Sequence record: PQ850614.1
Source: Escherichia phage LorandFenyves_Bas91
DNA length: 64,000 nucleotides
Strand: one strand, 5' to 3'
The position numbers were made by a program, and so were the translations under genes. Of the stretch, positions 39,713 to 59,699 are shown one piece after another; within the stretch, counting starts at the first letter, position 1, and each line of letters begins with the position of its first letter. The notes beneath the pieces are model-generated. The model searched no databases. It had not been told where the DNA came from and worked only from the letters and a program-made list of their open reading frames with translations.

Positions 39713-41743
39713 TTAACCTCTATTCAATGAACATTTAGGGGAATTACAATAAACTTGATTCATAGAACCAAGCGTACAACTTTCAGCATCGCGCCACGGA
39801 ATCTGCTTAAAACACTCTGAGCAGTATCCGAGGGTTGACCACATGGCTTTGGTGAAGTCAGTGCTTCGGTTTCCGTCGAAGCTGACAACAGTTTTGCGGA
39901 GAGCTGTTCGTGATTCAGGAAACACACCTGCTTTCTCAGCAGGTTCCTCCTTTTTTGGCTTAGTTGAGATTGCAAAAATACTGTTGCTACGTTTCTCAAC
40001 ATAAGCATCAACAACATCCTCCAGAGTGATGCCTGTCTGTTTCGCTGAGGAAGGTAATACAGTCATACGACCAATCATTTCTTCAGTTACACGTAAAGCA
40101 AATTCAGGACGACGGGCGTTTGTTGTATCTGTTGCTTTAATCCATACATAACCATCTTTGATCGTAGCATTAGATACTTTCTTCTTTACTTCTACAGCGC
40201 AGACTTTACAGATATCTTCTCCACGAAGACGACTAAGCTCATCATCGAACTCATTCTCTGTTTTAACTTCACCACAGATTTCACAAACACCAATAGGAGT
40301 CTCCTCCTCTTCTTCCTCTTTAGGTTTAGTCAAACCTTCCAGACATTCAGGATGCCAGTAGCACTGATATGCGAAGACTGCTTTAGGTGCATCCTTCCAG
40401 TCAATGTGCTTGTCACAACCACCACAATCACCATGAGAGTGTGCTTCCCAGAATTTACGAGTGATAGTAACGCCATTCTTGTTGACGAAACTATCATTCA
40501 TATCAAAAGGGATATCATCATCGAAGTCAGCAGTAGTTGACTCAGGCTCCTTTTTCTCCAGAGACGGGTCAACAAAACGACCTGCTGTGATCACTAAACG
40601 AACCATAGCATTAACTTCGGAGATGCAGGATACTGTCCCACGGTAAACAATTTTAGGGTCTTTCAGTGCGTCCTGATAAGCCTTAATGTCTACGTTATGA
40701 ACATCACCTTCGATGTATTCTTGAGATTTCTCATCGTAGATATAGCCAATCATCTTACCACGAGAAGGAACAGCACCAGCAGTCGCATAAGGAACAAACT
40801 CATGTGGTGTGATTTCCACAGTCATATCGCGGCGGATATCAATGTTTCGATCGCTTGCGATTTTGTTTTGACTTACCACTGCGTTTCTTCGACGAACGTC
40901 TGCCGCTGTCACACCCGGCTTCGTGTCGTAAGGATTGCTTGTATTGCTTTTTGAGGAACTTTGATAGTTGCTTTGGCTGTAGTTGTTCGAGTAATAACTG
41001 CCCCAACGATTGGCTACCGTAAAAACCGGAAGCTCGTGGGCGACCTCTTCAACCAGAGTCATGCTGTTGTTTGACATATCAAAGATATATTCTGTACCAA
41101 CTTTACATTCAAAATGCTCGTCAATACGGTTCTTATGGGACTTAGAACGCTTCAGAATCCACATCAACATATCTTCTTCAGAAGCACCAAACCAATCTCT
41201 GTTACAACGTGCGAGATGGAAAGGACGCTCTTCGTTACGAATGATATGAAGGCGGTTATCAGAAGCATCATGCCAGATTAAGGTGAAAGCACCATCCAGC
41301 TTTTGAATAGTCTCTGCTGCACCAATAGTGTTAATAGAGTGGCAGATGTTCTCACTGTCTACCTCGAAGTTTTTGCTGTCAGGTAACAGATCTTGGTCCA
41401 TCAAGGTTCCATTATGAACCAGAGTGATGTTACCATGTTGGAAAGGATGGGCGTTCTTGGCGTTAACTGCACCTTTCGTTGCATGACGACTGTGACCAAC
41501 AATCCATGAAGGTGCTACAGTGTAAGCTGTTTCACCAGTGGTGTGCTTCTTGTACTCATCTTGTAGGATGAATGCGAAAGAAGGAAGAGCTTCTTTATAA
41601 GTGAAGACTTCCTTAGTACTTTTACGCTGACCAAAGATACCGGAGGAATGTTGTCCTCGGAATACTCCAGCATAAAAGAGTTGGTTAAATACGTCTAAAT
41701 CAGTGCTTGACAGATTACCGCCAGCTAATACGATGCCACAAAT
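39713..41743 (-). CDS. class II (Ntn) glutamine amidotransferase fused to three Zn-ribbon modules; proposed ATT start
   Basis: The frame stays open 339 nt upstream of the track's TTG 41404, up to a TAG at 41749-41747, and encodes CGIVLAGG...GHSRHATKG...NAHPF...HNGTL. No in-frame ATG, GTG or TTG exists there. AGGTGG lies 8 nt before ATT 41743, and the next codon is the nucleophile Cys. C-terminal part: CGGC...CYWHPEC, CEIC...CKVC, CSEC...CNSPKC. Confidence 0.7.
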   Translation of the reverse strand: MCGIVLAGGNLSSTDLDVFNQLFYAGVFRGQHSSGIFGQRKSTKEVFTYKEALPSFAFILQDEYKKHTTGETAYTVAPSWIVGHSRHATKGAVNAKNAHPFQHGNITLVHNGTLMDQDLLPDSKNFEVDSENICHSINTIGAAETIQKLDGAFTLIWHDASDNRLHIIRNEERPFHLARCNRDWFGASEEDMLMWILKRSKSHKNRIDEHFECKVGTEYIFDMSNNSMTLVEEVAHELPVFTVANRWGSYYSNNYSQSNYQSSSKSNTSNPYDTKPGVTAADVRRRNAVVSQNKIASDRNIDIRRDMTVEITPHEFVPYATAGAVPSRGKMIGYIYDEKSQEYIEGDVHNVDIKAYQDALKDPKIVYRGTVSCISEVNAMVRLVITAGRFVDPSLEKKEPESTTADFDDDIPFDMNDSFVNKNGVTITRKFWEAHSHGDCGGCDKHIDWKDAPKAVFAYQCYWHPECLEGLTKPKEEEEEETPIGVCEICGEVKTENEFDDELSRLRGEDICKVCAVEVKKKVSNATIKDGYVWIKATDTTNARRPEFALRVTEEMIGRMTVLPSSAKQTGITLEDVVDAYVEKRSNSIFAISTKPKKEEPAEKAGVFPESRTALRKTVVSFDGNRSTDFTKAMWSTLGYCSECFKQIPWRDAESCTLGSMNQVYCNSPKCSLNRG

Positions 41744-45330: not shown

Positions 45331-46527
45331 TTATTTTCCTAAAAATAATCCGCTCATAATACCATCCCACTCAGAGGACGGAATCACTGAATACTCCGAA
45401 CTTTGGTCCAGAGTTCCGCTACTGAATCGCTGAACAATATTATAAATATTGAACATATCTTTAGTCTCAGCGCGATAAGCGTAGACTAATCTGTCAGCTG
45501 TTCTTTCATCTTTAGATACCCGACGAGCAAAGGTAACCAGAAGGTTGTCACCTTTGAGTATTTCTGACTCATCTTTTACTAGATCAGGGTGCATAACCGG
45601 CAAGAACATTGAGTTGTTCACTCGTAACTCTGCTGTTTCATCATTCTCATAATGAATCCATTTAAAATCTTCATCACGAAAGTGACCGCATCCATCTCTG
45701 TATGACTGTTGACGCCAAGGCACTTGAAATGCTTCAGCGTATTTATCAGCCATGCCAACCGTAAATAGTGACGCTGGGAAAATACAAGCATCCCAATCGT
45801 TACCAACCAGAGTTGCTTTCTTTTCGCTCAAGAGGTTAGTGTAAGTGCTAACCATTCGTGAGTAAACATAAGCCTGAAGGATTGTCCAGCCTTCAACCAA
45901 CCATTTATGGAGGAAGGTTTCAACTTGACTCTCTTCATCTTCACAATAGAAGGTTCGGTCTAACATCAAATAGAACAGACAACGATCAGCAGGGATATTC
46001 TCAGTTGCTACCCCCATAAAACCTTTATCGTGCCAGCGTAAACAGGAGGGACGATCTTTGTCCACAAATGCTTCCATAGCTTCCAGTACAGCACGAGGTG
46101 TGGTTCGGTGTTCAGGGTTTTTGTCGTTCCAACGTTCGATGTTATTTTTAGGAGGTGTGTCTTCATCTTCATATGAACACCAACTCAAAGCTTCAGCTAC
46201 GTGCTTTTCATCACGCCAACGTCTAAAGCCTAACATCTTCATATGAGTTCCAGAGTTCCAGATATGCTTAATACTGCTCATATCCATCTCTCGACTTAAT
46301 AAGAACTCTTCCCCATCAGCACTACGAACGTTAGCATCTTCATGCCACACTCGAACGTGCATGTTCCATCCATGAGTTGCCTCATACATGTTAGGGTCGA
46401 AGTAGTCATCATCTTCGTCGTCTTCATCAACGCCACCATTATAGTTGCGAAGCTGAAGGAACCCATAACAAGGAGGGTTGACCGTTAAAACATTACCTTC
46501 AGTATCTTCTAATGTTACTGGAAACAT
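45331..46527 (-). CDS. hypothetical protein of the ligase cluster (398 aa)
   Basis: Track ORF. Trp/acidic-rich, with no recognised motif. Confidence 0.6.
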   Translation of the reverse strand: MFPVTLEDTEGNVLTVNPPCYGFLQLRNYNGGVDEDDEDDDYFDPNMYEATHGWNMHVRVWHEDANVRSADGEEFLLSREMDMSSIKHIWNSGTHMKMLGFRRWRDEKHVAEALSWCSYEDEDTPPKNNIERWNDKNPEHRTTPRAVLEAMEAFVDKDRPSCLRWHDKGFMGVATENIPADRCLFYLMLDRTFYCEDEESQVETFLHKWLVEGWTILQAYVYSRMVSTYTNLLSEKKATLVGNDWDACIFPASLFTVGMADKYAEAFQVPWRQQSYRDGCGHFRDEDFKWIHYENDETAELRVNNSMFLPVMHPDLVKDESEILKGDNLLVTFARRVSKDERTADRLVYAYRAETKDMFNIYNIVQRFSSGTLDQSSEYSVIPSSEWDGIMSGLFLGK

Positions 46528-46538
46528 TATACCAACCT

Positions 46539-46901
46539 CTATTGGTTTTTAATCAACTCAATCGACTTACGGATATAAAGAATATCTCGGAAGTTTCGAT
46601 AGTTGTTCATAAATTGGTGCTTCTGGAAAGTAGCTTCTTCCAGCGCTTTCTTTGCTTCTGCGTAGCTTTTACGGGCAAGATGTACAACCCGTTCTGGTAA
46701 CATGTTTGCATGACGGATGACATACTTGTGAGCTTTCATGTTGCTTTGCTCACGAGCAATCTTACCTTTAGCAACTTTGATACCATTTGCAATCCAAGCA
46801 AGTTCTTGCTCAAGCTCATCGTTGGACATTCCACCGAGGTTTGATGCAACCTTGTTCAGAGTTTCAATATTAACGTTGCCCTTGATGGGACGTGTATTCA
46901 T
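46539..46901 (-). CDS. hypothetical protein (120 aa)
   Basis: Track ORF. Helical and basic. Confidence 0.6.
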   Translation of the reverse strand: MNTRPIKGNVNIETLNKVASNLGGMSNDELEQELAWIANGIKVAKGKIAREQSNMKAHKYVIRHANMLPERVVHLARKSYAEAKKALEEATFQKHQFMNNYRNFRDILYIRKSIELIKNQ

Positions 46902-46903
46902 AC

Positions 46904-47056
46904 TTACTCCTGTTGTTTACACTCGTCAATAACCCACTGATAAGTGGATTGCCCAGAAAAGAAACACTGAATAAATCCAGATGTTCTCTGCGTTACCAGT
47001 GCTAGTGCACAAATCACTATCGCTGCTGCTAGCAGTTTTAAATCTAATTTAGACAT
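46904..47056 (-). CDS. small membrane/secreted Cys-containing protein (50 aa)
   Basis: Below the track threshold. GAGAGGGAAT RBS after a terminator. LLAAAIVICALALV hydrophobic segment. Confidence 0.45.
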   Translation of the reverse strand: MSKLDLKLLAAAIVICALALVTQRTSGFIQCFFSGQSTYQWVIDECKQQE

Positions 47057-47074
47057 ATTCCCTCTCGTTGAATT

Positions 47075-47100
47075 TAAAAAAGGACTCTCCGAAAAGAGTC
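47075..47100 (-). terminator. intrinsic terminator
   Basis: Minus strand GACTCT-tttcgg-AGAGTC followed by CTTTTTT. Confidence 0.6.
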
Positions 47101-47163
47101 AAGCTTTAAATACAAAAAGATATTACCCAATATCTGTGGATAACCTGCTCTTAAAATATCTAT

Positions 47164-47203
47164 CCGACGGATGTTCGAGGGATGTTCCTCTCCCTAGCAT
47201 CGG
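47164..47203 (-). other. conserved stem-loop element, copy 1
   Basis: Minus strand CCGATG-CTAGGGAGAG-gaacatcc-CTCGAACATC-CGTCGG. The outer 6-bp helix encloses blocks shared with the copy at 53184. Confidence 0.5.
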
Positions 47204-47254
47204 CCCCATACGGGAAATATATTAAGATTAGGTTAGTTGAGTCAGAATAACTCA

Positions 47255-47278
47255 TATAGCCCTCCGAAGAAGGCTATA
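47255..47278 (-). other. TATAGCC/GGCTATA hairpin after the gene stop (module copy 1)
   Basis: 7-bp stem 5 nt after the stop of 47283..47750. The counterpart is at 53262-53289. Confidence 0.5.
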
Positions 47279-47282
47279 GATG

Positions 47283-47750
47283 TTACTCTATCTTAACTGA
47301 AGGACAATACTTCTCTTTCTTGCTGCGATACATAACAACAATCCAGTTTGAATCACGACGCTCTTTCTTACGTCGTTTCTTTTCAGCACGAGTTTCATAT
47401 GTGCTAGTTCGGTGGTCACGGTATATTCCACGAAGTTCATAAAATGCCCAACCACCACCAAACACTACACCAGCCAAAGCAGCCAAAGATGAGGCACCAA
47501 GAGCAGGGGCAGCGAACCATGTCCACCAGTCAAAGGTTGACACGTCGTTGTGCCCGAGGAGTGTCCCACCTACTCCAGTAAGTGCCGCACATATAACAGA
47601 TAAGAATCCAGACAGTATAACAAAACGCAAAACTGTTCGCCAGAAGTATTCACAAAAGTTAGTCATGTTGTCCCAATAGGAATCAGAGAGACTTGACGTA
47701 GCTTTGTTGAATCTGTGCAACCATCCGTTCTTATTAACCTTAATCATCAT
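47283..47750 (-). CDS. membrane protein (155 aa) with basic C-terminal tail
   Basis: Two or three hydrophobic helices (FVILSGFLSVICAALTGVGG, AAPALGASSLAALAGVVFGGGWAF), then KKRRKKERR. Confidence 0.65.
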   Translation of the reverse strand: MMIKVNKNGWLHRFNKATSSLSDSYWDNMTNFCEYFWRTVLRFVILSGFLSVICAALTGVGGTLLGHNDVSTFDWWTWFAAPALGASSLAALAGVVFGGGWAFYELRGIYRDHRTSTYETRAEKKRRKKERRDSNWIVVMYRSKKEKYCPSVKIE

Positions 47751-47980
47751 TCGCCTTTCTTAGCACGATCTTTGGCAGTTTTACCGGTGCGAATGCGATG
47801 GGAAACGTTAACCAGAGTGCCACCATCAACTACGGTAACGCTCTTGTTTTTAGCCAGATCGAACACAGTTTTCTCCGTGCCACCCAAGCGAATTTGCTTA
47901 GGCTCACTGAAGGTTTGGGTTGATTTGGATTGGAACTGGAACGGTTGACGGATTGCATCAATTGCACTTACTTTAGACAT
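47747..47980 (-). CDS. hypothetical protein (77 aa)
   Basis: Track ORF with a 4-nt overlap downstream. Confidence 0.55.
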   Translation of the reverse strand: MSKVSAIDAIRQPFQFQSKSTQTFSEPKQIRLGGTEKTVFDLAKNKSVTVVDGGTLVNVSHRIRTGKTAKDRAKKGE

Positions 47981-48052
47981 AGGGGAAATTCCTTAAAAAG
48001 TCATGGCTGCGTAGAGGGAATTCCCTACGCAAATTGGGCCGCCCACAGAGAG

Positions 48053-48070
48053 GCGTCATAGTACTAAAAG
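48053..48070. repeat. 18-mer GCGTCATAGTACTAAAAG, copy 1 of 2
   Basis: An identical 18-mer occurs at 55307-55324. Both lie just 3' of a minus-strand stop codon. Confidence 0.6.
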
Positions 48071-48086
48071 GAGGAGAGAAGAGGGC

Positions 48087-48203
48087 TTATTTAGCTACCT
48101 TTTTCTGTCCGTTTACGAACCAGATAATTGAACCGTCAGGCTGTCGTTGACCGAAGCCTTTCTGGTTAATCATATCGTCATAAGAATATGCTTTACGTCT
48201 CAT
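48087..48203 (-). CDS. small ORF (38 aa), hypothetical
   Basis: ATGA overlap with the stop of 48200..48460. Confidence 0.35.
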   Translation of the reverse strand: MRRKAYSYDDMINQKGFGQRQPDGSIIWFVNGQKKVAK

Positions 48204-48460
48204 TTGTTTTCCTGTGGAGTTAAGATAATTTCAGCTTTACTAAACTTCTCACCAACAACCATATCACCAGAGATGACACGCAGTTCTCCAGTGCCTAAGT
48301 TAACAGCTCCAGCAGGTTGACAGCCCCTGCTCTTAGCTGTAAGCATATAAATCTTTTGATCCTTACATTCTTGGAGTGTGAATACGTCAGCCATGCTTAG
48401 GTCTTTAACATGGAGGATTATTTCCTCCTTGCTTTTAACTTTAATGTGAATAGTGCTCAT
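48200..48460 (-). CDS. small beta-rich protein, 8-member paralog family
   Basis: Family pattern L..(G/A)D.F ... hydrophobic strand ... (V/C).NL..G. Here: LSMADVFTL...GAVNLGTGEL. Confidence 0.65.
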   Translation of the reverse strand: MSTIHIKVKSKEEIILHVKDLSMADVFTLQECKDQKIYMLTAKSRGCQPAGAVNLGTGELRVISGDMVVGEKFSKAEIILTPQENK

Positions 48461-48462
48461 GA

Positions 48463-48708
48463 TTACTCCTGAACCACTGACATACGAATCACTTCAACTG
48501 GGGCATCACTTTTCATAACACCTAATACACCAGTAAGAAGATTAACTGTCGTAATCCAACCATCTTCTACAGAGATTTTGTTGGACACATTATTGACACG
48601 GATGTAATACTGAGGGGATGCCGTTCCTCTCTGAACTACGAAAGGGTTTCCGGGAATAATTGTAGCCAGTGAAACCGTGTTATCTTTAATCTTTGGGATG
48701 ATCTTCAT
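48463..48708 (-). CDS. small beta-rich protein, 8-member paralog family
   Basis: IIPGNPFVV...ITTVNLLTGVL. Confidence 0.65.
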   Translation of the reverse strand: MKIIPKIKDNTVSLATIIPGNPFVVQRGTASPQYYIRVNNVSNKISVEDGWITTVNLLTGVLGVMKSDAPVEVIRMSVVQE

Positions 48709-48959
48709 TTAGAGTCCTTAATAACGTTAGCTTCAACCTTAACAGGAATAACAGAGATACCCTCTACCGGAGCACTTAGGAATCCATCTTCTAGATTGAC
48801 ACACACAACTCGATCTCGTGCAACTTCTACCCAATCAGTGCATTCCGCAGTACAAACCATATGCACTACACCGTCTTCTTTCAATCTAAAGGTATCACCC
48901 TTCTTCAGAGTGCGGAGCTTTGCCGTCTTGATGGTTTTGTTCAACTCGTTAACTTTCAT
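48705..48959 (-). CDS. small beta-rich protein, 8-member paralog family
   Basis: LKKGDTFRL...VVCVNLEDGFL. Confidence 0.65.
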   Translation of the reverse strand: MKVNELNKTIKTAKLRTLKKGDTFRLKEDGVVHMVCTAECTDWVEVARDRVVCVNLEDGFLSAPVEGISVIPVKVEANVIKDSK

Positions 48960-48967
48960 ATTGATTC

Positions 48968-49279
48968 CTATTTAAGTTTGAGGCTAATATTAAGGTGCAT
49001 ACATGCCCTGTTCTGTACAGCAGCATAACTTCTACCGAGCATGTCAGCCATTCTCTGAATAGACATGAACCCAGCATTACGGATAAGGAACTGGTCTTCT
49101 TCTTCAGACCACTTAACTCGGATTGAAGCTCTTGATATTCCGAACTTAGTGCAAGCTGTGTTAACAGCATTCTCCGTTACATTCATAATCTGAGCAACTT
49201 CTTGAACCGAGTACTCTTTGATCAATCTCCGAAGATTTTCAATCTGCATCGGAGTCCATATAGTTCTTCGTGCTTTCAT
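48968..49279 (-). CDS. DNA-binding protein with two Myb/SANT-like HTH repeats
   Basis: Start moved to ATG 49279 (GGAGGA RBS). Repeats WTPMQIENLRRLIKEYSVQEVAQIMNVTENAV and WSEEEDQFLIRNAGFMSIQRMADMLGRSYAAV. Confidence 0.6.
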   Translation of the reverse strand: MKARRTIWTPMQIENLRRLIKEYSVQEVAQIMNVTENAVNTACTKFGISRASIRVKWSEEEDQFLIRNAGFMSIQRMADMLGRSYAAVQNRACMHLNISLKLK

Positions 49280-49330
49280 ACATCCTCCAATTAAACATTT
49301 ATATAAGACTTGCTTAGATAAAGATTCAAT

Positions 49331-49358
49331 AAAATAGGGGGAGGGGACGAATCCTCCC
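49331..49358 (-). terminator. intrinsic terminator closing the structured ORF-free tract
   Basis: Minus strand GGGAGG-attcgtcc-CCTCCC followed by CCTATTTTATT. Confidence 0.5.
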
Positions 49359-49378
49359 ATATCCTATTAATTAAGTTT

Positions 49379-49503
49379 GCATGTAAGATCTAACAATCGG
49401 TTGCCTTTGTAGGAATAGGTGTAAAGCCAATCCAGCACTAAACTCCCGCCCCCTTAGTGGGCTGGGTTATTAAAGGGTAACGCCCTTATGGGCTAGTTAC
49501 ATG
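49379..49503 (-). ncRNA. candidate structured RNA (unclassified)
   Basis: A long-range 7-bp helix CATGTAA/TTACATG encloses ~110 nt. Inside is a 10-bp bulged hairpin (49431-49465) and short GC hairpins. No ORF. A terminator lies downstream. Confidence 0.35.
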
Positions 49504-49569
49504 AATGTTAGTTTGATAGGAGATCTGAAGTCCTATCTCAAAGGACTCTCGTAAGAATCCTTCACGATA

Positions 49570-49701
49570 TTACTTATTCATTTTTCGTCGGCTATCTCTC
49601 CAAGCCAACCAAGTGTAGGTTTTCAACTCTTCTAAACTTTCTGGAGTGAATAGGTATTCTTTGAAGGTGTCACTAAACCACTCTAAAAATTCTTCAGTCA
49701 T
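49570..49701 (-). CDS. small ORF (43 aa), hypothetical
   Basis: Below the track threshold. MTEEFLEWFSDTFKEYLF... Weak RBS. Confidence 0.35.
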   Translation of the reverse strand: MTEEFLEWFSDTFKEYLFTPESLEELKTYTWLAWRDSRRKMNK

Positions 49702-49710
49702 AATAACATC

Positions 49711-49956
49711 TCATTTCTTAGGTAGAATAATATCCCACAGCCATGCCCACAAAATAAGTGATATAAAAATCACAGCAATGATGGGCCATAGAAAAACTAT
49801 AATTGCTATCTTTGATAAGTTTGGTTCGTTATCCCACCCTCTGAACTCGATACTGCCCTTTACATCAAGATATCTTACCAGAGCTGAAACTATCACAATA
49901 CCTATCAGGTAAACAATCAAGACACTAACAGGACTGATCACAAGGTTGATCTCCAC
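49711..49956 (-). CDS. two-TMD membrane protein (start uncertain)
   Basis: ISPVSVLIVYLIGIVIVSALV and IAIIVFLWPIIAVIFISLILWAWLW. The GTG start lies inside the upstream Cys-rich ORF, and later GTG/TTG starts are possible. Confidence 0.55.
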   Translation of the reverse strand: MEINLVISPVSVLIVYLIGIVIVSALVRYLDVKGSIEFRGWDNEPNLSKIAIIVFLWPIIAVIFISLILWAWLWDIILPKK

Positions 49957-50098
49957 ATGTTTTACAAATCACTGGTGAATAACTACAGGCAGGATATACT
50001 GACACACCATCAAACGTTTCACACCTACAATCAGGGCACTCACCATTGGATTCCATGTCATCATCATCATACACTTCTCCACCACCATAACAGCTCAT
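49925..50098 (-). CDS. Cys-rich small protein (57 aa, 12 Cys)
   Basis: Below the track threshold. TAAGGAG RBS 5 nt before ATG. ...ECPDCRCE...ICKTCGDQPCDQSC. Confidence 0.55.
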   Translation of the reverse strand: MSCYGGGEVYDDDDMESNGECPDCRCETFDGVSVYPACSYSPVICKTCGDQPCDQSC

Positions 50099-50107
50099 AT
50101 GAACTCC

Positions 50108-50329
50108 TTAGTAAACTAAACCTATAGCCTTTGCATCAGGCTGAGGGACTACTTTTGCACTAGGGCGATAGCCATCCACTGAGCCATTCCAAAGATTGAC
50201 ACAGGTGATATACCCATCGTTCAAGTAGTCTGTTTTAATCCAGAAGTGTTTATCATGACCAAAAATACTTCCGTTTGGCAGAGTGGACAGCTCAACGGTT
50301 TTAAGCGACTGCTTAGAGTCTAGTTTCAT
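50108..50329 (-). CDS. small beta-rich protein, 8-member paralog family
   Basis: LPNGSIFGHDKHFWIKTD...ITCVNLWNGSV. Confidence 0.65.
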   Translation of the reverse strand: MKLDSKQSLKTVELSTLPNGSIFGHDKHFWIKTDYLNDGYITCVNLWNGSVDGYRPSAKVVPQPDAKAIGLVY

Positions 50330-50336
50330 AATAACC

Positions 50337-50585
50337 TCAATTATCGTAGCATGTATTCCAATACATGTAGTTAACGTACGTTCTCGGTTTGATTCCGTAC
50401 ATGATGAAGTGAGTCTTCTTAATCCTTTCCTTCAGCGTGTAATAAAGGCCATCACTGAAGTTACCAATCTTTACTTGGAAGCGTAAGGAGCGAGCATCCA
50501 TTCGAAGCATAGAGATTAGCTGTACCCTACTACCTCCAGCCATCTCTTCAAGAAGCTTCTTTGTATTCCAATAATGAGCTGTCAT
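50337..50585 (-). CDS. hypothetical protein (82 aa)
   Basis: Track ORF. Confidence 0.55.
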   Translation of the reverse strand: MTAHYWNTKKLLEEMAGGSRVQLISMLRMDARSLRFQVKIGNFSDGLYYTLKERIKKTHFIMYGIKPRTYVNYMYWNTCYDN

Positions 50586-50586
50586 A

Positions 50587-50868
50587 TTACCACTCCTTAC
50601 CGGTTGTTGTTACAGAACCACCACACCACTGCGCATCGGATAAGGTTTTAGTCTCCTCATCTACTGCTGCACCATTCAGGCATGAGATACCACTGTAACG
50701 CATATCAATTTCACCAGAAGGAACCTTCTCGCCCTTATGCCAGCGAGAAACACAAACACCTTCCACTGCTACTGCACACCATCCATCAGGACGGCTCTGT
50801 ACGCAGCCTGTAAGGGCCACACAGACAAGGAAGATACAGATTAAGGATATTACACCACCCCAACTCAT
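50587..50868 (-). CDS. lipoprotein (93 aa)
   Basis: Signal peptide with lipobox: ICIFLVCVALTGC. Confidence 0.65.
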   Translation of the reverse strand: MSWGGVISLICIFLVCVALTGCVQSRPDGWCAVAVEGVCVSRWHKGEKVPSGEIDMRYSGISCLNGAAVDEETKTLSDAQWCGGSVTTTGKEW

Positions 50869-50887
50869 AACTACCTCCTATTTGATT

Positions 50888-51002
50888 TGGTGGACTATCT
50901 GGAATCGAACCAGAAGCTCACTAAGAAAGTAATTCCCACTGTTATAAAAGCACTTGCCTCAACAGGGATACACTAACTCTGGTGCCGTACCCATACTAGC
51001 CC
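50888..51002 (-). other. 115-nt tRNA-like element (acceptor, D-arm-like and T-arm present; no canonical anticodon arm found by eye)
   Basis: 3' end TCTGG-TTCGATT-CCAGA + TAGTCCACCA. The 5' GGGCTA pairs with TAGTCC. It lies 11 nt downstream of tRNA-Arg on the same strand. The central ~64 nt does not fit a cloverleaf. Confidence 0.3.
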
Positions 51003-51013
51003 TTGTTTAAAAT

Positions 51014-51089
51014 TGGTCGGGACGGAAGGATTCGAACCCTCGTAAGGCGAGTTAGAAGCTCGCTGCCTGTTCCACTAGACTACGCCCCG
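51014..51089 (-). tRNA. tRNA-Arg(UCU): tRNA-Arg (anticodon UCU), CCA encoded
   Basis: Hand-folded 76-nt cloverleaf. Acceptor CGGGGCG/CGTCCCG. Anticodon arm GCGAG-CTTCTAA-CTCGC. T-arm GAGGG-TTCGAAT-CCTTC. Discriminator A + CCA. Confidence 0.85.
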
Positions 51090-51502
51090 ATAGATTTGAA
51101 ACCGTTATACTTACCTGCACATGATCTGTTACAAAAAGAATTTGCATATTTAACATTTCGCTTTTCTTTTTCAAAAGATCTTCCACAATAAGAGCAAACA
51201 ACTGAAATCATTGTTCTTCCAGTAGTTGCTTCTAATGTTGACTTCTTTCTGTGATTTTCTATGGAAAGTATCTGAAGATTAGATATGTCATCATTAGTTT
51301 TATTTCTGTCAATATGATCAACCTCCTCGTCTTCAGTTAGGTACCTGCCTATGTGACAAGACATTAAATATCTTGCGTAAGAAATGGTTGTCCTCTCCGT
51401 GTCGGTATTATACAAATCAACACGCTTCCTACCATCTCTGCTTGTTCTTAAGTAGCCCAATCGCCAGTCATTAACGAAGGGGTATTCTAACTCTATCTTC
51501 AA
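51080..51502 (-). CDS. HNH homing endonuclease
   Basis: EEVDHIDRNKTNDDISNLQILSIENHRKK plus a C-terminal CSYCG...CNRSC zinc motif. The last 10 nt overlap the tRNA 5' end. Confidence 0.8.
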   Translation of the reverse strand: MKIELEYPFVNDWRLGYLRTSRDGRKRVDLYNTDTERTTISYARYLMSCHIGRYLTEDEEVDHIDRNKTNDDISNLQILSIENHRKKSTLEATTGRTMISVVCSYCGRSFEKEKRNVKYANSFCNRSCAGKYNGFKSIGA

Positions 51503-51536
51503 AACCCCTCCATTGAGCTAAGGGTGCTGAGTTTGT

Positions 51537-51746
51537 TTAACTAAAGATACGCAAGGCCACATCGTGACCGATATGACCGGGAACTTTATGCTGTTCTATT
51601 TTCAAACAGCGCTTACAGACACGAGATACACGAGACTCTTTTCTCTCGACTGGAGTGTCTTTAGCGTGAGTGATTTGAAGGTTTTCAGTGATCACCCACT
51701 CGTGTTTACATCCAGAATCTTCGGGCTTTTTCTTACGAAAGAACAT
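51537..51746 (-). CDS. small Zn-ribbon protein (H-x-W...CxxC family)
   Basis: Start moved to ATG 51746 (AAGGGG RBS). CKHEW...CKRC. Confidence 0.55.
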   Translation of the reverse strand: MFFRKKKPEDSGCKHEWVITENLQITHAKDTPVERKESRVSRVCKRCLKIEQHKVPGHIGHDVALRIFS

Positions 51747-51754
51747 AACACCCC

Positions 51755-51919
51755 TTAGATCAGATCTGTTTTCTTGTGCAGACCACAAACTTTACAGCGA
51801 GAGTAGATACGCAACCCTTGTCGCTCTCTGTCAGTAAGTTTATTTGTGATCGTCAGTTCATAAGTAGAAAGATCTTCCCACTCATGGAAATGAAAGAAGC
51901 GTTTGAACCATTTGATCAT
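51755..51919 (-). CDS. small Zn-ribbon protein (H-x-W...CxxCG family, 54 aa)
   Basis: Below the track threshold. MIKWFKRFFHFHEW...CKVCG is a clear paralog of 51929..52090. Confidence 0.55.
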   Translation of the reverse strand: MIKWFKRFFHFHEWEDLSTYELTITNKLTDRERQGLRIYSRCKVCGLHKKTDLI

Positions 51920-51928
51920 AATGATTCC

Positions 51929-52090
51929 TTAGATTACATCACGATGACTAACATCACCACACACCTTACACTGAATAACGTAACGTGTGCCCTTGTCATT
52001 ATTCCCATCTGAATCTGTATAGACCAGAGGGCGAGTATCAATAATCTTCCAATCATGACAATGAAAGACACGCTTTAGCCACTTGAACAT
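51929..52090 (-). CDS. small Zn-ribbon protein (H-x-W...CxxCG family, 53 aa)
   Basis: Start moved to ATG 52090 (GAGGT RBS). MFKWLKRVFHCHDW...CKVCG. Confidence 0.55.
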   Translation of the reverse strand: MFKWLKRVFHCHDWKIIDTRPLVYTDSDGNNDKGTRYVIQCKVCGDVSHRDVI

Positions 52091-52097
52091 ATTAACC

Positions 52098-52349
52098 TCA
52101 AGCACAAGCAGGGAGTGTGATGATCTTATACTTACCATCAAACTCTCCAAATAAACCTAAGAATGTAGGACTGTAAGTACCAGTACAAACAAACTCATCA
52201 AACAATGCGTTATAGCTAGGCTTAATCTTCCAAGCCCATACATAACCCATCTTGTCAATTGCAATGTAACGAGTGTTCAGAGGAACAGTCATTATTACAC
52301 CATCAACTTCGATCACTTTAGTTATTGGTGCAGCTTGAAAGTTTTTCAT
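52098..52349 (-). CDS. hypothetical protein (83 aa)
   Basis: Track ORF with an ATGA overlap with the upstream small ORF. Confidence 0.55.
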   Translation of the reverse strand: MKNFQAAPITKVIEVDGVIMTVPLNTRYIAIDKMGYVWAWKIKPSYNALFDEFVCTGTYSPTFLGLFGEFDGKYKIITLPACA

Positions 52350-52522
52350 ACTTTACCTTTAATGAAAATGTCATTACCACATACACAGCATGAACGAACA
52401 ACAGTAGCGCCGCGCTGAACGATACGAACCTCTTCTTTAACCAGATTGACACGAGCACTACAACAAGGAGAGTTAACATAAGAGTAACCAGCTTGTGTAT
52501 TCTTGATTGTTTGCTTAGACAT
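52346..52522 (-). CDS. small Zn-ribbon protein (58 aa)
   Basis: Below the track threshold. AAGAGGAA RBS after a terminator. SPCCSA...SCCVCG. Confidence 0.5.
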   Translation of the reverse strand: MSKQTIKNTQAGYSYVNSPCCSARVNLVKEEVRIVQRGATVVRSCCVCGNDIFIKGKV

Positions 52523-52565
52523 TTGAGCTTCCTCTTGTTAGTTTAAGTAAGAGCTGACCCTTAAT

Positions 52566-52597
52566 TAAAACAACAAAGGCCGCCCGAAGGCAGCCTC
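52566..52597 (-). terminator. intrinsic terminator
   Basis: Minus strand AGGCTGCC-ttcg-GGCGGCCT followed by TTGTTGTTTT. Confidence 0.6.
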
Positions 52598-52600
52598 TCT

Positions 52601-52810
52601 TTATTGACTAACACCACGAATCAGATGATTCTGTAGCATTTCATCTTCTGCATTATACAGGAATGCAAACATCAACTCCTTAGCCACATCTCTTGAGCAA
52701 TTAAGACACTTAGAGATTTGCGTTAGTTGCATGTTGCGTTCTGTGTGTTCCATCAAGGCAATGCGAATGATCTCTCGCATACCTATCACATGGGTTGTCT
52801 TAACCGGCAT
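52601..52810 (-). CDS. small HTH-like protein (69 aa)
   Basis: Start moved to ATG 52810. MQLTQISKCLNCSRDVAKELMFAF resembles an HTH. The track start 52852 would overlap the upstream small ORF. Confidence 0.5.
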   Translation of the reverse strand: MPVKTTHVIGMREIIRIALMEHTERNMQLTQISKCLNCSRDVAKELMFAFLYNAEDEMLQNHLIRGVSQ

Positions 52811-52940
52811 AGGTCCAATTGCCTTGTTTGTTACGGATGGCTGACATTGCATGAATCCAGAAGCCTTCCAGTTTCAGAGCACCATTAGCTACTGCATCCA
52901 TACGTTCAGGGCGGTTCATACGTTTGGTTGATACTTTCAT
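52800..52940 (-). CDS. small ORF (46 aa), hypothetical
   Basis: Below the track threshold. GAGAGATAGG RBS. MKVSTKRMNRPERMDAVANGALKLEGFW... Confidence 0.4.
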   Translation of the reverse strand: MKVSTKRMNRPERMDAVANGALKLEGFWIHAMSAIRNKQGNWTYAG

Positions 52941-53183
52941 ACCTATCTCTCTTTGTTAGTGGAGGCATTATTGCCAGTTGATATAAGGGATAGCCCTAGT
53001 CAGTAGACTAATCCTGACCGCGTACTCATTGCCGACCTTCTCTGCCTAAGAGTTCAGGTTCTAGAGCTATCTCTTATTCCAACTGGTGAAGACTCCCTAC
53101 CCCTAGGAAGTCTCCTGAATCCCAAACCAATACGTACCCCTACATATCGGAAAGTCTTTCGAAAATTAACAGGTTTTAGTCTA

Positions 53184-53219
53184 ACACCGGATGTTCGAGC
53201 AAGCTCTCCCTAGCGGTGT
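53184..53219 (-). other. conserved stem-loop element, copy 2
   Basis: Minus strand ACACCG-CTAGGGAGAG-cttg-CTCGAACATC-CGGTGT. The outer helix sequence differs from copy 1, but pairing is kept. Confidence 0.5.
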
Positions 53220-53261
53220 GGCATATGCCTGAATTAATAAGTTAATGAGGAACACCCTCAC

Positions 53262-53289
53262 ATAGCCCTCTGATAAACACAAGGGCTAT
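53262..53289 (-). other. ATAGCCCT/AGGGCTAT hairpin after the gene stop (module copy 2)
   Basis: 8-bp stem 10 nt after the stop of 53299..53517. Confidence 0.5.
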
Positions 53290-53298
53290 AAGTCGGTG

Positions 53299-53517
53299 TT
53301 ACTTTTGGGATAAACACAGATCAGGGCGTGGCATAACAGTGGTTGATAGACCGAAAACTTCAACAGAACCACTATTCAGATTAGCGGCCTTGCACAAACC
53401 ATCAGGAGTTTTATCTTCTAACATTAGCCAGAAACGTCTATCGTAGGAGAAAACATCACCACTTTTAACATCTTCTGCATTTGCATATTTAGGATAATCA
53501 ACTACTTTAATTTCCAT
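53299..53517 (-). CDS. small beta-rich protein, 8-member paralog family
   Basis: VKSGDVFSYDRRFWLMLE...LCKAANLNSGSV. Confidence 0.65.
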   Translation of the reverse strand: MEIKVVDYPKYANAEDVKSGDVFSYDRRFWLMLEDKTPDGLCKAANLNSGSVEVFGLSTTVMPRPDLCLSQK

Positions 53518-53527
53518 CTACTTACCC

Positions 53528-53746
53528 TTATTGGTTGATGGTTAGGTGAACTAGCTTATTCACATGAGCGAAGTTAGGTAGGATTTGCATTTCATTATTG
53601 AAGATATTAAAACAACGAACCCCGCCCTCTACAGCATAAGCAGATTTCTGAAACAGACTACCTCCCCACACAAATACATCATGTGTTTCAAGAGATCGTA
53701 ACTGAACAGCCTCGTCAACAACCTTCTTTTCAATGTTCATAATCAC
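53528..53746 (-). CDS. small beta-rich protein, 8-member paralog family
   Basis: LETHDVFVWGGSLFQKS...VRCFNIFNNEM. Confidence 0.6.
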   Translation of the reverse strand: MIMNIEKKVVDEAVQLRSLETHDVFVWGGSLFQKSAYAVEGGVRCFNIFNNEMQILPNFAHVNKLVHLTINQ

Positions 53747-53997
53747 TTCCGATTAGTAATAACAACGTCATGAAGAAGAACAACCTTGCTTTTCGAGCTG
53801 AGCTTAAGGACTTGCTTGTTTGTTAGACTAAGGACGACACAACCACCATCAGAAGGCTTAGTCTCCTCGACCTGCGATCTAAACAGGTGAACAACCATGT
53901 AGAAATCTGCTCGTGTTTCCCTGATTTGGAATACATCTCCAAGTTTGAGATCACCAACACACAAAGACGGTTCATTTACTTCAAGATTAATCTTCAT
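53743..53997 (-). CDS. small beta-rich protein, 8-member paralog family
   Basis: LKLGDVFQIRETRADFYMVV...GGCVVLSLTNKQV. Confidence 0.65.
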   Translation of the reverse strand: MKINLEVNEPSLCVGDLKLGDVFQIRETRADFYMVVHLFRSQVEETKPSDGGCVVLSLTNKQVLKLSSKSKVVLLHDVVITNRK

Positions 53998-54250
53998 CTT
54001 TAACCTCTACCTCTACGTTGGTTATGTGGAGATCGTTACGAACTTGGCAGACCTCATTTCGGTTAATAGGGACAAGCTTTCCATAGACCACATCAACGCA
54101 TTTAACATGATAATCAGATGTTGAGTCTGTTCTGATATAGAGTTTTTCTCGGAAAGAAAACAAAACTCCCGGCCTCATGTTATTTAAACGAAGGTGATGG
54201 CCTGTTTCTTGGATATTAACTTTCACTGTTGATCTCCTGCTGTTTAGCAA
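53987..54250 (-). CDS. small beta-rich protein, 8-member paralog family
   Basis: MRPGVLFSFREKLYIRTD...VKCVDVVYGKL. Confidence 0.65.
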   Translation of the reverse strand: MLNSRRSTVKVNIQETGHHLRLNNMRPGVLFSFREKLYIRTDSTSDYHVKCVDVVYGKLVPINRNEVCQVRNDLHITNVEVEVKDED

Positions 54251-54512
54251 TAGCTACTCGCAAGTCTTCATTAGCACGAGCAAGGCGTTTAACTTCATGA
54301 TCAAGGCTGATAAGGCGCTTGTTTCTGTCTTCAACTTGCATAATAAGATCGTTGAGTGTTACTTTAACTTTCTCATTATACATCTCATCTACTCGGACAA
54401 GAGATTTATACATTCTCTCCCAGCTTGCTGCTTTGTTTCTTAGGATAATAAATCCTAGAACGCTGATAGTTAAACAGATTACAAAAAGGAATTTATATAC
54501 TTCTAAAGTCAT
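54216..54512 (-). CDS. N-terminally anchored coiled-coil membrane protein (98 aa)
   Basis: TMD FLFVICLTISVLGFIIL followed by a heptad-rich charged region. Confidence 0.6.
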   Translation of the reverse strand: MTLEVYKFLFVICLTISVLGFIILRNKAASWERMYKSLVRVDEMYNEKVKVTLNDLIMQVEDRNKRLISLDHEVKRLARANEDLRVAIAKQQEINSES

Positions 54513-57511: not shown

Positions 57512-58336
57512 AATATTCACCTTTCAATTGTAAGGGCGCTATTGCCCCGCTCTCTATGAGCTTGTTTAAGTCACTATTAACTTATCTCTAACCACTCACT
57601 TTTTAAGTAGTTACAGGTAAGCGAGGCGGTCTTATCAGGAGTTAACCTTGCCGCCTCCTTATCCGTGATGTTTCATCTGGTATCTTTAATTAGTCGCTAT
57701 AAACGAAGCCGACCTGATAGCGATGATCAATCATCACAATAAGGCAGTGCGTCCGACTCTAATTAGTTACGTTATTGTAACCGTCGGCAATATCGTTTAC
57801 TTTGCTTTCGCTCTCGCCTATCCTTTTGTATCAACTCTCAATCGCTAGTCATCGCCCACTACGGGATACTATTGCGAAAGAGTCATTGACCGTCTAATGT
57901 TCCGACGTTTTATATCTTTCGGCAAGTTTACTACATAAACCGACTATGTACTTTCATCATAAGATGAATCTCAAGCCGTTCACATCGTAAACGTTCACAC
58001 TAAACCTTATTGTTAAATAGCAATTTGCCACTTTTTAACCACTCCCCGCCGCTCTCAATTGAGCGTTAATTCGTCGGGATTGCCTACCCTGATTAACTTC
58101 TTTCACCGTAGCACCGTTTTAGCGATGACCGCCGCTACCCTTAACCGTGGGCGATTAGCTTAAGTCTTTGCGTGTACTCGATGAATCCGTTTTATCAGTG
58201 GTGACGTTTCCAGTAAGGGAATGTAAGATTGTTTTCTCTGATAGTTTAGAGAATCTTACACCGTTTTATCTGGTATGTTATCTGATGGTTATTATCATCT
58301 AACATATTCAACCGATATAGGAGAATGTTTAAATTA

Positions 58337-58347
58337 TTAAAGAGCGG
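58337..58347. repeat. TTAAAGAGCGG 11-mer, copy 1
   Basis: Same 11-mer at 58568-58578 and 58987-58997. The variant TTAAAGAGCTGG is at 58879-58890. Confidence 0.6.
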
Positions 58348-58433
58348 TAAATCTGTCAGTGTGCTTTCTCACACTACGCAACTGTTAGCCGTTGTTACGC
58401 TTTCCTTAAGCGGTGATTTGCTTAAGTGTGCTC

Positions 58434-58462
58434 ATTATGAATCATGTTGTTTTCGCTGTCAA
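58434..58462 (-). promoter_or_regulatory. strong sigma70-type promoter (early)
   Basis: Minus strand TTGACA-N17-CATAAT followed by GAGCA. Near-identical core to 58920-58948. Confidence 0.65.
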
Positions 58463-58567
58463 CCACTTTTTTAATCTTTTTCGTCGTTCCCGCTATTGGG
58501 AGGATATATCAATCAGCTTTATTTGATTGAAGACTAAGCGGTGATGCTTATCTTATGATTCATATTG

Positions 58568-58578
58568 TTAAAGAGCGG
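58568..58578. repeat. TTAAAGAGCGG 11-mer, copy 2
   Basis: Exact repeat. Confidence 0.6.
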
Positions 58579-58591
58579 TTACTACATTTAC

Positions 58592-58619
58592 AGCTTAACA
58601 CATCGTGTTAGCTTGTCAA
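58592..58619 (-). promoter_or_regulatory. sigma70-type promoter candidate
   Basis: Minus strand TTGACA-N16-TAAGCT, with TG two nt upstream of the -10. Confidence 0.4.
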
Positions 58620-58878
58620 CTCTTTTTATCATCTTCTTTTAATTCCTTTCCCTTGTCTCGCGTGAATCTATGCGAAAGGGCAAGATGATAAGTCTGATTT
58701 GTCTTTTAGGAATCTAGTGCGCTTTCAAGCATTGACCATTTGAAAGTATCGAACAAATGAGGCTTATTTTGTTGCTCATCGTCCGCCTGTTCACGTATGA
58801 ATCAGGAATCAATTCTAGTGGTCAACTAAGCGCCTTATAGTAATGACGTTCCCGCCACCTGTAAGACAAATCATATTT

Positions 58879-58890
58879 TTAAAGAGCTGG
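58879..58890. repeat. TTAAAGAGCTGG variant of the 11-mer, copy 3
   Basis: One-nt insertion variant. Confidence 0.5.
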
Positions 58891-58919
58891 ATGTTTCACG
58901 TCATCGCTGACTTATGCTC

Positions 58920-58948
58920 ATTATGTATCAGGCTTTTTCTAGTGTCAA
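58920..58948 (-). promoter_or_regulatory. strong sigma70-type promoter (early)
   Basis: Minus strand TTGACA-N17-CATAAT followed by GAGCA. Confidence 0.65.
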
Positions 58949-58986
58949 TACTCTTTTTCAAGTATTTTCACTTTCTAGCCTGATTT

Positions 58987-58997
58987 TTAAAGAGCGG
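58987..58997. repeat. TTAAAGAGCGG 11-mer, copy 4
   Basis: Exact repeat, about 40 nt upstream (minus sense) of the 58943 -35 box. Confidence 0.6.
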
Positions 58998-59045
58998 GGC
59001 AATTTCTTGCCTTGTATGTTTTACATCGTACCCGATGAAATGAAG

Positions 59046-59054
59046 TATACATTA
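59046..59054 (-). promoter_or_regulatory. TAATGTATA box at the head of the ORF-free tract
   Basis: Exact 9-mer on the minus strand, between the 59230 terminator and the sigma70-type promoters. Confidence 0.4.
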
Positions 59055-59229
59055 ATCAGATGAGGTTGCAATAGGGTAAAGCAAATTATTTTAAACTTTT
59101 TTTGAAAGGTGGGAAGTATAAGAGAATGCGCGCGGGATAACATACGCAAAACAGGCTGTAAATCACTTTCTAACGTCCTGTAAGCCATTCTAACGAGCTA
59201 AAAGGGAGTAAGGTATACAATCACCTTAG

Positions 59230-59258
59230 AAAAGAAAAAAGCCTCATAGTGAGGCTTA
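59230..59258 (-). terminator. intrinsic terminator
   Basis: Minus strand AAGCCTCA-cta-TGAGGCTT followed by TTTTTCTTTT. Confidence 0.65.
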
Positions 59259-59333
59259 TAGGAAGGATTTAAAGCATCAGATAAATTATGACCATAGGCA
59301 TGACTACGGCACAATAAAGAAGAAAGATTAAGC

Positions 59334-59699
59334 CTATGGATTTACACATTGACCGTTACCGGATGCCATTTCATTCATGGACTCATCAAAGAGCGTCAAC
59401 GATGAGCGCATCAAGTGATCCACCGTAATTTGTTTACCGGTAGTTTCATTTACCAGTTGAATAGTTTTAGCGTATGATTGTACATGTTCAAAATCATCAA
59501 CATGCAAAATAATAACTTTAGGTGACTGTTTACCAGTTTCATAGTTTTCTATCAAATAGGTGCACTGTAAACCGTCAACCATATCAGGGGAGAATGTTGC
59601 AGCCTTTACACTACCCATAGCCGATAGCAGGACACCTAACAGGAGAACAACCAGAAAGAAGCCTACAACCGTTTTAACGACGAATTTAATAAACCACAT
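59334..59699 (-). CDS. membrane-anchored/exported early protein (121 aa)
   Basis: N-terminal hydrophobic anchor VVGFFLVVLLLGVLLSAMG. Confidence 0.6.
   Translation of the reverse strand: MWFIKFVVKTVVGFFLVVLLLGVLLSAMGSVKAATFSPDMVDGLQCTYLIENYETGKQSPKVIILHVDDFEHVQSYAKTIQLVNETTGKQITVDHLMRSSLTLFDESMNEMASGNGQCVNP

Follow-up and report, generated by a model that had tools for sequence, protein, structure and literature searches.

Several kinds of RNA element are known from the early operons or intergenic regions of phages. They include the nut sites of lambda (boxA and boxB, with protein N), the early RNase III sites of T7, the PeSL cassettes of T4, the (X)nCUUCGG(Y)n hairpins of phage intergenic regions and the put sites of HK022 (putL and putR), whose RNA works in cis on RNA polymerase (beta' zinc-binding domain) and suppresses pausing and termination. 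The putRNA occurs in two copies of ~70 nt, each folding into two stem-loops, the second of which (stem II) contains non-canonical pairs, G·A and C·A, around its middle (PMC9378689). The phiEco32-like phages are a model for the reprogramming of host RNA polymerase (gp36 sigma factor, gp79), and in one of them, SU10, the small minus-strand genes are early ones, whose promoters lie at the right end of the genome and are used by the host polymerase with sigma-70 (PMC4281155). The passage of such 25-50-kb early operons, from few right-end promoters and through several intrinsic terminators, lacks an explanation. Here, we describe a structured RNA module that occurs twice in a stretch of 64,000 nt (hereafter, the window) of Escherichia phage LorandFenyves_Bas91 (PQ850614.1). 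By nucleotide identity this is a phiEco32-like coliphage (Kuravirus), since positions 46000-54500 match vB_EcoP-CHD5UKE1 at 97.6%, SU10 at 97.3% and phiEco32 at ~91% (megablast), and small minus-strand genes fill the region around both copies of the module.

The original prediction had described a two-part element, a hairpin right after a stop codon followed by a stem-loop with two identical 10-nt blocks. Alignment of the two intergenic regions with their homologues revealed instead that homology spans ~215 nt, starting at AGTAAC, where the upstream gene has its stop codon, and running on through further hairpins. Both copies, here called A and B, are on the minus strand, which is the sense strand of the early genes, and comprise five to six hairpins. 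On this strand the order is AGTAAC, H1 (ATAGCC...GGCTAT), H1b (GAGN...NCTC), an AT-rich linker, H2, H3, WTAGA, H4 and H5 (Table 1). The linker, single-stranded and AU-rich in the transcript, is universal among the copies. H2 is a hairpin of 3 bp with an RTAT loop, whose arms are, depending on the lineage, CCC/GGG, GGC/GCC or GCC/GGC; it adjoins H3, and the two hairpins together measure 57-61 nt and carry, in H3, a position of the G·A / C·A type. The loop of H4 is G-rich. With an intrinsic terminator defined as a GC-rich hairpin followed by a U-run, only A-H5 fits, H1, H3 and B-H5 being devoid of U-runs.

The sequence elements on which the prediction was based are all present on the minus strand where it had placed them, and they are specific. 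A search for CTAGGGAGAG-N-CTCGAACATC returned exactly two occurrences in the window (47170-47197 and 53190-53213, minus strand) and none in 100 dinucleotide shuffles, and the ATAGCC...GGCTAT hairpin is found in the window solely at 47256-47277 and 53262-53289 (0.07 expected). It begins 5 nt past the stop codon of open reading frame (ORF) 47283-47750 and 9 nt past that of ORF 53299-53517, two genes that had been called unrelated and indeed give no alignment by BLASTP. The spacing of "about 50 nt" between the two parts is right for copy A (52 nt); in copy B it is 42 nt. The 6-bp helices closing H3, different in the two copies, are fully paired (CCGATG/CGTCGG, 47203-47198 with 47169-47164; ACACCG/CGGTGT, 53219-53214 with 53189-53184), both copies have the inner GAG(G)/(C)CTC helix, and these helices are the minimum-free-energy folds of the isolated hairpins, as originally drawn. 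A covariance model built on H2+H3 recognises exactly copies A and B in the window (78 and 59.8 bits; E ~1e-19 and ~1e-14). When the two 10-mers were searched for singly, allowing up to 2 mismatches, neither exceeded its chance frequency in the window, so weaker additional copies are not seen there.

The evidence that carries the case comes from the homologues. The alignment obtained with the covariance model contains 46 matches, corresponding to 31 distinct sequences from ~40 loci, in which 97.1% of helix cells are paired against 80.8% after shuffling (none of 500 shuffles as high), and the covariation score is 0.414 against 0.140 for shuffled alignments and at most 0.105 with slid partners. 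The outer helix of H3 is paired in 98.9% of cells, with double-sided changes in four of its six pairs, and none of the full-length homologues has an unpaired closing helix. RNAalifold recovered the same helices from 22 A-type sequences (12 pairs with double-sided changes) and from 18 B-type ones (7 such pairs), and covariation extends to H1, H1b, H4 and H5. The functional structure first proposed from two copies, a conserved loop framed by compensatory helices, thus holds across 31. These data show that the module is under strong purifying selection on structure, and it is very probably a functional structured RNA.

The H3 internal loop adds a different kind of substitution. At the loop-closing position, beside the inner helix, 18 of the aligned sequences have A·G, 11 have C·A and two have A·A, and C·G never occurs; the switch is seen in the A, B and Moazamivirus lineages, and two of the copies (L028 and L018) differ at these two positions alone. 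Switching among A·G, A·A and C·A fits the isostericity of a sheared-type non-Watson-Crick pair, and the position would be such a pair. In the apical loop of H3 in copy A (47180-47188, minus strand) there is a repeat, GGAACATCC, present in this phage only, the apical loops of the other copies being different; it makes a third AACATC in copy A, besides those at the stop-codon end (GTAACATC) and in the 3' strand of the H3 internal loop.

The pattern of wobble pairs indicates which strand is structured. The gene-sense strand has many G·U pairs (outer-helix pair 21-52, for example, is U·G in 21 of 31 sequences, and others are in H1, H4 and H5), which become A·C mismatches on the opposite strand; the structure is therefore assigned to the sense strand, that is to the early transcript, and such strand specificity points to RNA. 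A protein-coding gene was considered and rejected: only ORFs of 20-33 aa cross the modules, and what distinguishes the homologues is indels of 2 and 4 nt within H3, together with compensatory changes.

At its 5' edge, the module begins at 47282-47287, at 53298-53303 and in all the homologues with a conserved AGTAAC (or AATAAC, GAGTGAC) that provides the upstream gene with its stop codon. The lower stem of B-H1 (AACACC/GGTGTT) takes in two bases of the stop codon at 53301-53299, and since this stem covaries in B-type copies, the stop codon lies inside the base of H1; in copy A the base of H1 may likewise extend to GTAAC/GTTAT, taking in the stop codon at 47285-47283. The equivalent of H1b in copy B is GAGG/CCTC, an alternative pairing at 53259-53247 (minus strand). 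At least six different upstream sequences for copy B and at least seven for copy A are joined exactly at AAGTAAC, so that the edge of the module is a mosaic recombination junction.

Both copies are present in ~100 records of Kuravirus and Suseptimavirus. In the Salmonella phages 7-11, SE131 and pSal-SNUABM-01, which are Moazamiviruses and belong to a different family, there is one A-type copy, a single match to the covariance model per early region; between Kuravirus and Moazamivirus the module retains ~72% nucleotide identity, whereas the adjacent membrane protein is only 34% identical. In the early region of the Moazamiviruses an RNA-binding protein of the ProQ/FinO family is annotated (gp128 of pSal-SNUABM-01, L008 13041-13769; gp122 homologue in 7-11), which is a possible partner for structured RNAs. 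Further copies were yielded by pattern scans of IMG/VR, metagenomes and representative genomes. A distant one among them is in a citrovirus-like 48.7-kb contig (L049) binned as a Flavobacterium metagenome-assembled genome, in which a 446-aa ORF is 41% identical to gp67 of Citrobacter phage CVT22; here H2, both loop strands and the inner helix of H3 are kept and the outer helix is wholly different (ATAGCG/CGCTAT). In the same contig, seven of the small ORFs listed between 2100 and 5700 end in ...(D/E)EENE, and at the one junction that was read (~2855-2864) the stop codon overlaps the start of the next ORF (GAAGAAAACGAATGA); the shared ends look like a reflection of a repeated junction sequence.

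A full homologous module was also read in the citrovirus Klebsiella phage Klyazma, guided by a marginal match to the covariance model (E = 0.17), and the same type is carried by two further related Klebsiella phages. Citroviruses and phiEco32-like phages have in common a sigma factor, a primase/helicase and a set of ATP-grasp, amidoligase and amidotransferase genes, and the citrovirus module is placed, counted from the early end, after the first 5-7 small genes. It was not found in Aeromonas phage APT65, Salmonella phage PKM.Hi.22.6 and Erwinia phage Pecta; the gap of Pecta that corresponds to the module of the other citroviruses (L056 17455-17620, minus strand) holds instead an unannotated Cys-rich ORF (MGCCDGWRLEKGEEINGECPDCGEE...CDGSC). 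Some matches to the pattern alone, in soil, archaeal and Pseudomonadales contigs and in L010, were discarded as chance, having neither outer helix nor H2 and scoring 15-22 bits over the pattern region only.

H2-H3 is the conserved core of a strand-specific, multi-hairpin RNA module of ~215 nt, transcribed within the long sigma-70-driven early polycistronic RNA of phiEco32-like phages. We propose that H2-H3 would offer a specific binding platform to RNA polymerase itself or to a phage or host protein, and would act in cis on the transcribing or processing machinery at the punctuation points of the operon; H1 would either protect the 3' end of the upstream message or take part in its processing. 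The most likely effect would be to set read-through or 3'-end formation at adjacent, and perhaps also at downstream, terminators, as in put/nut antitermination or in a protein-controlled attenuator. A platform acting in cis is favoured because H2-H3 recalls the putRNA in its adjacent hairpins, drifting helices, invariant purine-rich loop and presence in two copies. The A-type copy is the ancestral form and ends in an intrinsic terminator, located 55-65 nt past H3 in 22 of 22 A-type sequences and followed straight after by the next ribosome-binding site. In this phage the ribosome-binding site and ATG of the next gene (46904-47056) are within ~20 nt after A-H5, and the records of 7-11, SU7 and 4E8 carry a terminator annotation at the homologous site. 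Since the A-type module always ends in this way, expression of the downstream genes requires read-through. The several intrinsic-terminator-like sites inside the early operon provide a context for terminator control: on the early strand, a terminator scan of the window detected six such hairpins (59257, 56589, 55261, 55176, 52598 and 47100).

A number of observations weigh against this interpretation. The last hairpin of copy B is not a terminator, and the sites at 56589, 55261 and 55176 precede copy B, so the module cannot explain read-through there. In contrast to put and nut, the Kuravirus module lies 5-11 kb away from the known early promoters, and H2 is a helix of only 3 bp. The pattern with which most copies were collected fixed 12 of the 14 loop bases, and the invariance of the H3 loop is therefore partly a matter of ascertainment, although all the inspected copies from phage records that had been found by similarity also fit the loop pattern. 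In CVT22 the architecture is retained and the sequence of the H3 internal loop has diverged, and for this reason the partner of the loop may be lineage-specific. A search of HK022 22000-40751, where the put sites are expected and are unannotated, with the covariance model and filters off gave no plausible match (best E 2.5), and antiterminator pairing between module and terminator was rejected, as only complementarities of 4-5 nt, not conserved, were seen. Taking this together, and reading from anatomy and position, we assign to terminator control a probability of roughly 0.3-0.35. A bolder version, in which H2-H3 would be a new class of nascent-RNA element, a put-like processive antiterminator of unrelated fold that binds the host elongation complex, or a small phage factor on this complex, and is common to sigma-factor-encoding podophages of three families, with the stop-codon H1 coupling folding to upstream translation, is unlikely.

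Other explanations distribute the same features differently. In a processing or stability cassette comparable to the T7 early RNase III sites, H1, which is irregular and amounts to ~20 bp-equivalents, would be cut or would protect the 3' end of the upstream message, the linker would be an RNase E site and H2-H3 would stabilise the downstream 5' end. The position of H1, 5-9 nt past the stop codon and without a U-run, would suit this role, as would the shape of the B-type H1 (6 bp, 5x5 loop, 8-10 bp), in outline like a T7 RNase III site (an irregular duplex of roughly two turns with an internal loop), the universal linker and the occurrence of two copies within one very long operon. H1 of copy A has, in addition, a C(UUCG)G tetraloop of the kind discussed in the 7-11 paper for a phage intergenic hairpin with a stabilising or processing role; H1 loops range from 4 to 12 nt, and the UUCG is not kept in other copies. 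RNase III and RNase E, however, need little specific sequence, which would leave unexplained why 14 nucleotides of the loop are invariant and why H3 shows isosteric covariation of a non-Watson-Crick kind, and five or six helices would be superfluous for stabiliser hairpins. Such a cassette is rather unlikely. A stable small RNA formed by H2-H3-(H4)-terminator, ~130 nt in copy A, released by processing or from a weak internal promoter and acting in trans through its loops on host or phage targets or proteins, would agree with the Rho-independent terminator that closes A-type copies after an A/U-rich stretch, which is typical of small RNAs, and with the ProQ/FinO-family protein of the Moazamiviruses. 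It would also agree with the AT-rich, –10-like hexamers that precede H2 in all lineages and, in copy A, with a sigma-70-like CTGACT-18-TATATT that ends ~7 nt before H2. This 9/12 match, the only one of its kind, has no counterpart in copy B and was rejected as a promoter; its spacing shifts by a 3-nt insertion in SU7-type A copies, and the –35 is missing in B-type copies and in 7-11. Copy B also lacks the terminator, the window has no excess of sequences complementary to the loops, and H1 and H1b, equally conserved, would have no place in an RNA starting at H2. A small RNA of this kind appears quite improbable.

An element acting as DNA, namely a replication origin, a single-strand initiation or primosome site, or a linker for recombination and gene shuffling like the T4 PeSL cassettes, would give a meaning to the perfect DnaA-box-like TTATCCACA beside AT-rich DNA in all A-type and Moazamivirus copies and to the junction, always AAGTAAC, at which upstream genes vary; single-stranded DNA, moreover, also tolerates G·T wobbles. 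The box is missing in copy B, L049 and the citroviruses, and its AGGTTA has an alternative account at the RNA level, as it pairs with TAACCT of the linker in the RNAalifold consensus and may be kept for that helix. Furthermore, switching among A·G, A·A and C·A suits RNA tertiary motifs better, a recombination linker needs sequence identity rather than compensatory changes that alter the sequence, and gene shuffling at the edge is an expected by-product of any conserved intergenic block. A role at the DNA level is very improbable, and terminator control by a cis-acting RNA is the interpretation we favour.

The module was also compared with known motifs and families. In a kink-turn, tandem sheared pairs (G·A and A·G) come after a bulge of 3 nt, and a sarcin-ricin (loop E) motif has AGUA opposite GAA. 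By eye, no strand of the module has a 3-nt bulge followed by GA in the kink-turn register, and the GAA after the inner helix of H3 is opposite to GGGA instead of AGUA. Hammerhead ribozymes, tetraloop-receptor motifs, domain IV of the signal recognition particle RNA, GGA sites for CsrA and mimicry of CRISPR repeats (H2 versus type I-F) did not fit when compared by eye. A resemblance to the T7 promoter, CTA(TA)GGGAGA, was dismissed because phiEco32-like phages are not known to encode a single-subunit RNA polymerase. Rfam 15 recognised only a tRNA-Arg in the whole window, and sensitive scans of 500 nt around each copy gave unrelated families at chance level (E 6.3 and 9.5), outside the stem-loop. 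The gp36-dependent middle/late promoter of phiEco32 has just one element, tAATGTAtA, which precedes the start site by 6-8 bp (PMC8948821); its best resemblance by eye, TAATATATT (7/9), is in copy A only and is missing in copy B and in the other lineages, and a gp36 promoter was rejected. We found no published description of the module in the searchable literature, the two main phiEco32 papers (PMC3275717, PMC2587145) excluded, and it is apparently undescribed so far.

Table 1. Features of the two module copies, of the early region of the window and of the related module in phage Klyazma (positions refer to the window; H, hairpin).
Feature	Position	Strand	Basis and remarks
Module copy A, whole: AGTAAC with stop codon, H1, H1b, AT-rich linker, H2, H3, H4, terminator H5	47075..47287	-	Homology with copy B and other phages; RNAalifold consensus of 22 A-type sequences
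A-H1 (first part of the original prediction): ATAGCCTTC-UUCG-GAGGGCTAT hairpin, no U-run after	47256..47277	-	RNAalifold: pairs invariant or changed on one or both sides (UG/CG/UA, UA/AU)
A-H1b: small hairpin GAGT-TATTCTG-ACTC	47239..47253	-	Pair 46-54 UA in 17, CG in 5 (double-sided)
A-H2: mini-hairpin CCC-GTAT-GGG, 1 nt 5' of H3	47205..47214	-	Pair 6-15 CG in 17, GC in 14
A-H3 (second part of the original prediction): outer CCGATG/CGTCGG, 7x7 internal loop CTAGGGA x GAACATC, inner GAGG/CCTC, apical loop AACATC	47164..47203	-	Sequence, fold, covariance model
TTATCCACA, perfect DnaA-box-like 9-mer	47135..47143	-	Kept in all A-type and Moazamivirus copies (L007 ~19181-19189; L008 ~19486-19494)
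A-H4: AGATATT-GGGT-AATATCT, G-rich loop	47118..47135	-	Read from sequence and compared with H4 of copy B; missing in phage 7-11
A-H5: intrinsic terminator GACTCTTTTCGGAGAGTC then CTTTTTT	47075..47100	-	Terminator scan (47100-47083 + T6); covariation
Module copy B, whole	53088..53303	-	Homology and RNAalifold (18 B-type sequences)
B-H1: lower stem AACACC/GGTGTT (53300-53295 with 53256-51), upper stem ATAGCCCT/AGGGCTAT (53289-82 with 53269-62)	53251..53300	-	Lower pair 8-49: CG 12, UG 4, UA 2
B-H2: mini-hairpin GGC-ATAT-GCC abutting H3	53220..53229	-	Sequence and covariation
B-H3 (second part of the original prediction): outer ACACCG/CGGTGT, same 7x7 internal loop, inner GAG/CTC, CTTG loop	53184..53219	-	Sequence, fold, covariance model
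B-H4: hairpin CCGATATGTA-GGGG-TACGTATTGG	53127..53150	-	Several one-sided pair-keeping changes (GU/GC/AU, UG/UA/CG)
B-H5: hairpin GGAGACTTCC-TAGGGGTA-GGGAGTCTTC, without U-run, hence not a terminator	53088..53115	-	Four pairs with double-sided changes
tRNA-Arg(TCT)	51014..51089	-	Between module copies A and B; likewise in phiEco32 and relatives
Near-consensus sigma-70 promoters	TTGACA-17-CATAAT at 58948 and 58462; TTGACA-16-TATAGT at 61503 (~61480-61503)	-	Same as SU10 early promoter list
Klyazma module: TATAGC..GGCTATGTG, GGGA..TCCC, linker, small hairpin, CAGCG-CTAGGAA...CATCC-GCTG, last hairpin with GTAGGGGTA loop and T-rich tail			

As regards the early operon in which the copies are embedded, the only early promoters predicted or validated in SU10 and 7-11 are the sigma-70 ones at the right end; in the window, near-consensus sigma-70 promoters are borne by a non-coding stretch of ~1.8 kb (57533-59334, minus strand). 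Two of the terminator-like sites, 55261 and 55176, form a tandem pair within an early unit that has been described as single. A conserved GGGAGGATTCGTCCCCTCCC hairpin followed by CCTATTTTAT, terminator-like, is located at 49334-49363 (minus strand) and is also found in L005, L014, L016 and L017; it surfaced as a fuzzy match to the motif and has no relation to the module. Searches of the neighbouring proteins against Pfam and PHROG gave no informative function, and the small hydrophobic 50-aa proteins encoded downstream (phi32_90-like, Klyazma orf075) have no recognisable likeness to Hok.

Because it is conserved across three families, much more strongly than the surrounding proteins, with covarying helices around an invariant loop, the module is a testable candidate for the cis element that the passage of the early operons lacks. 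At minimum, it is a new phage RNA family suited to Rfam, and it marks sites of gene-content shuffling. It also matters for the choice of payload insertion sites in the early region, since most therapeutic Kuravirus genomes carry it.

Among the described systems, several share part of this anatomy. The T4 PeSL cassettes are also repeated intergenic stem-loops among small early ORFs at mosaic junctions of gene content; unlike them, the module has no conserved early promoter, is much larger and has repeats that are compensatory instead of identical. UUCG-type loops like those of the (X)nCUUCGG(Y)n hairpins, proposed to stabilise or process transcripts in the same phage group (including the gene 47/48 hairpin of 7-11), are present in H1 of copy A (GCCUUC-UUCG-GAGGGC) and in its terminator, but the conserved features of the module are the base of H1 and the loop of H3, not the tetraloop. 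The early RNase III sites of T7 likewise form irregular hairpins, paralogous to one another and interrupted by internal loops, that separate the cistrons of a long early transcript synthesised by the host polymerase, and in both cases a hairpin would stay at the 3' end of the upstream message; the H3 helices (6 + 3-5 bp), however, are short for RNase III, the loop sequence is invariant and there are many more helices. With the lambda nut sites the module shares its location, as intergenic RNA in early operons upstream of terminators. Purine-rich internal loops are the kind of site bound by arginine-rich peptides, and copy B contains a weakly boxA-like CUCAUUAAC (~8/12 by eye against the consensus) followed by a small hairpin. 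A nut site was rejected, the boxA-like bases being within the H1b stem and not kept in L049 and the citroviruses, and the H2 loop being GUAU or AUAU instead of a GNRA-like pentaloop; no N-like protein was identified, though N homologues were not searched for. In the comparison with HK022 put, the covariance model showed no homology of sequence or structure in HK022 22000-40751, H2 is limited to 3 bp, no triplex-forming 5' strand was identified and the Kuravirus copies lie kilobases from the promoters, inside a 215-nt unit of six hairpins that starts at a stop codon. The likeness to put is anatomical only: two related copies per genome in early operons read by the host RNA polymerase, two adjoining stem-loops with at most 1 junction nt and helices that differ between the copies, and conserved unpaired or non-canonical G·A/C·A positions in the middle of the second stem, upstream of terminators.

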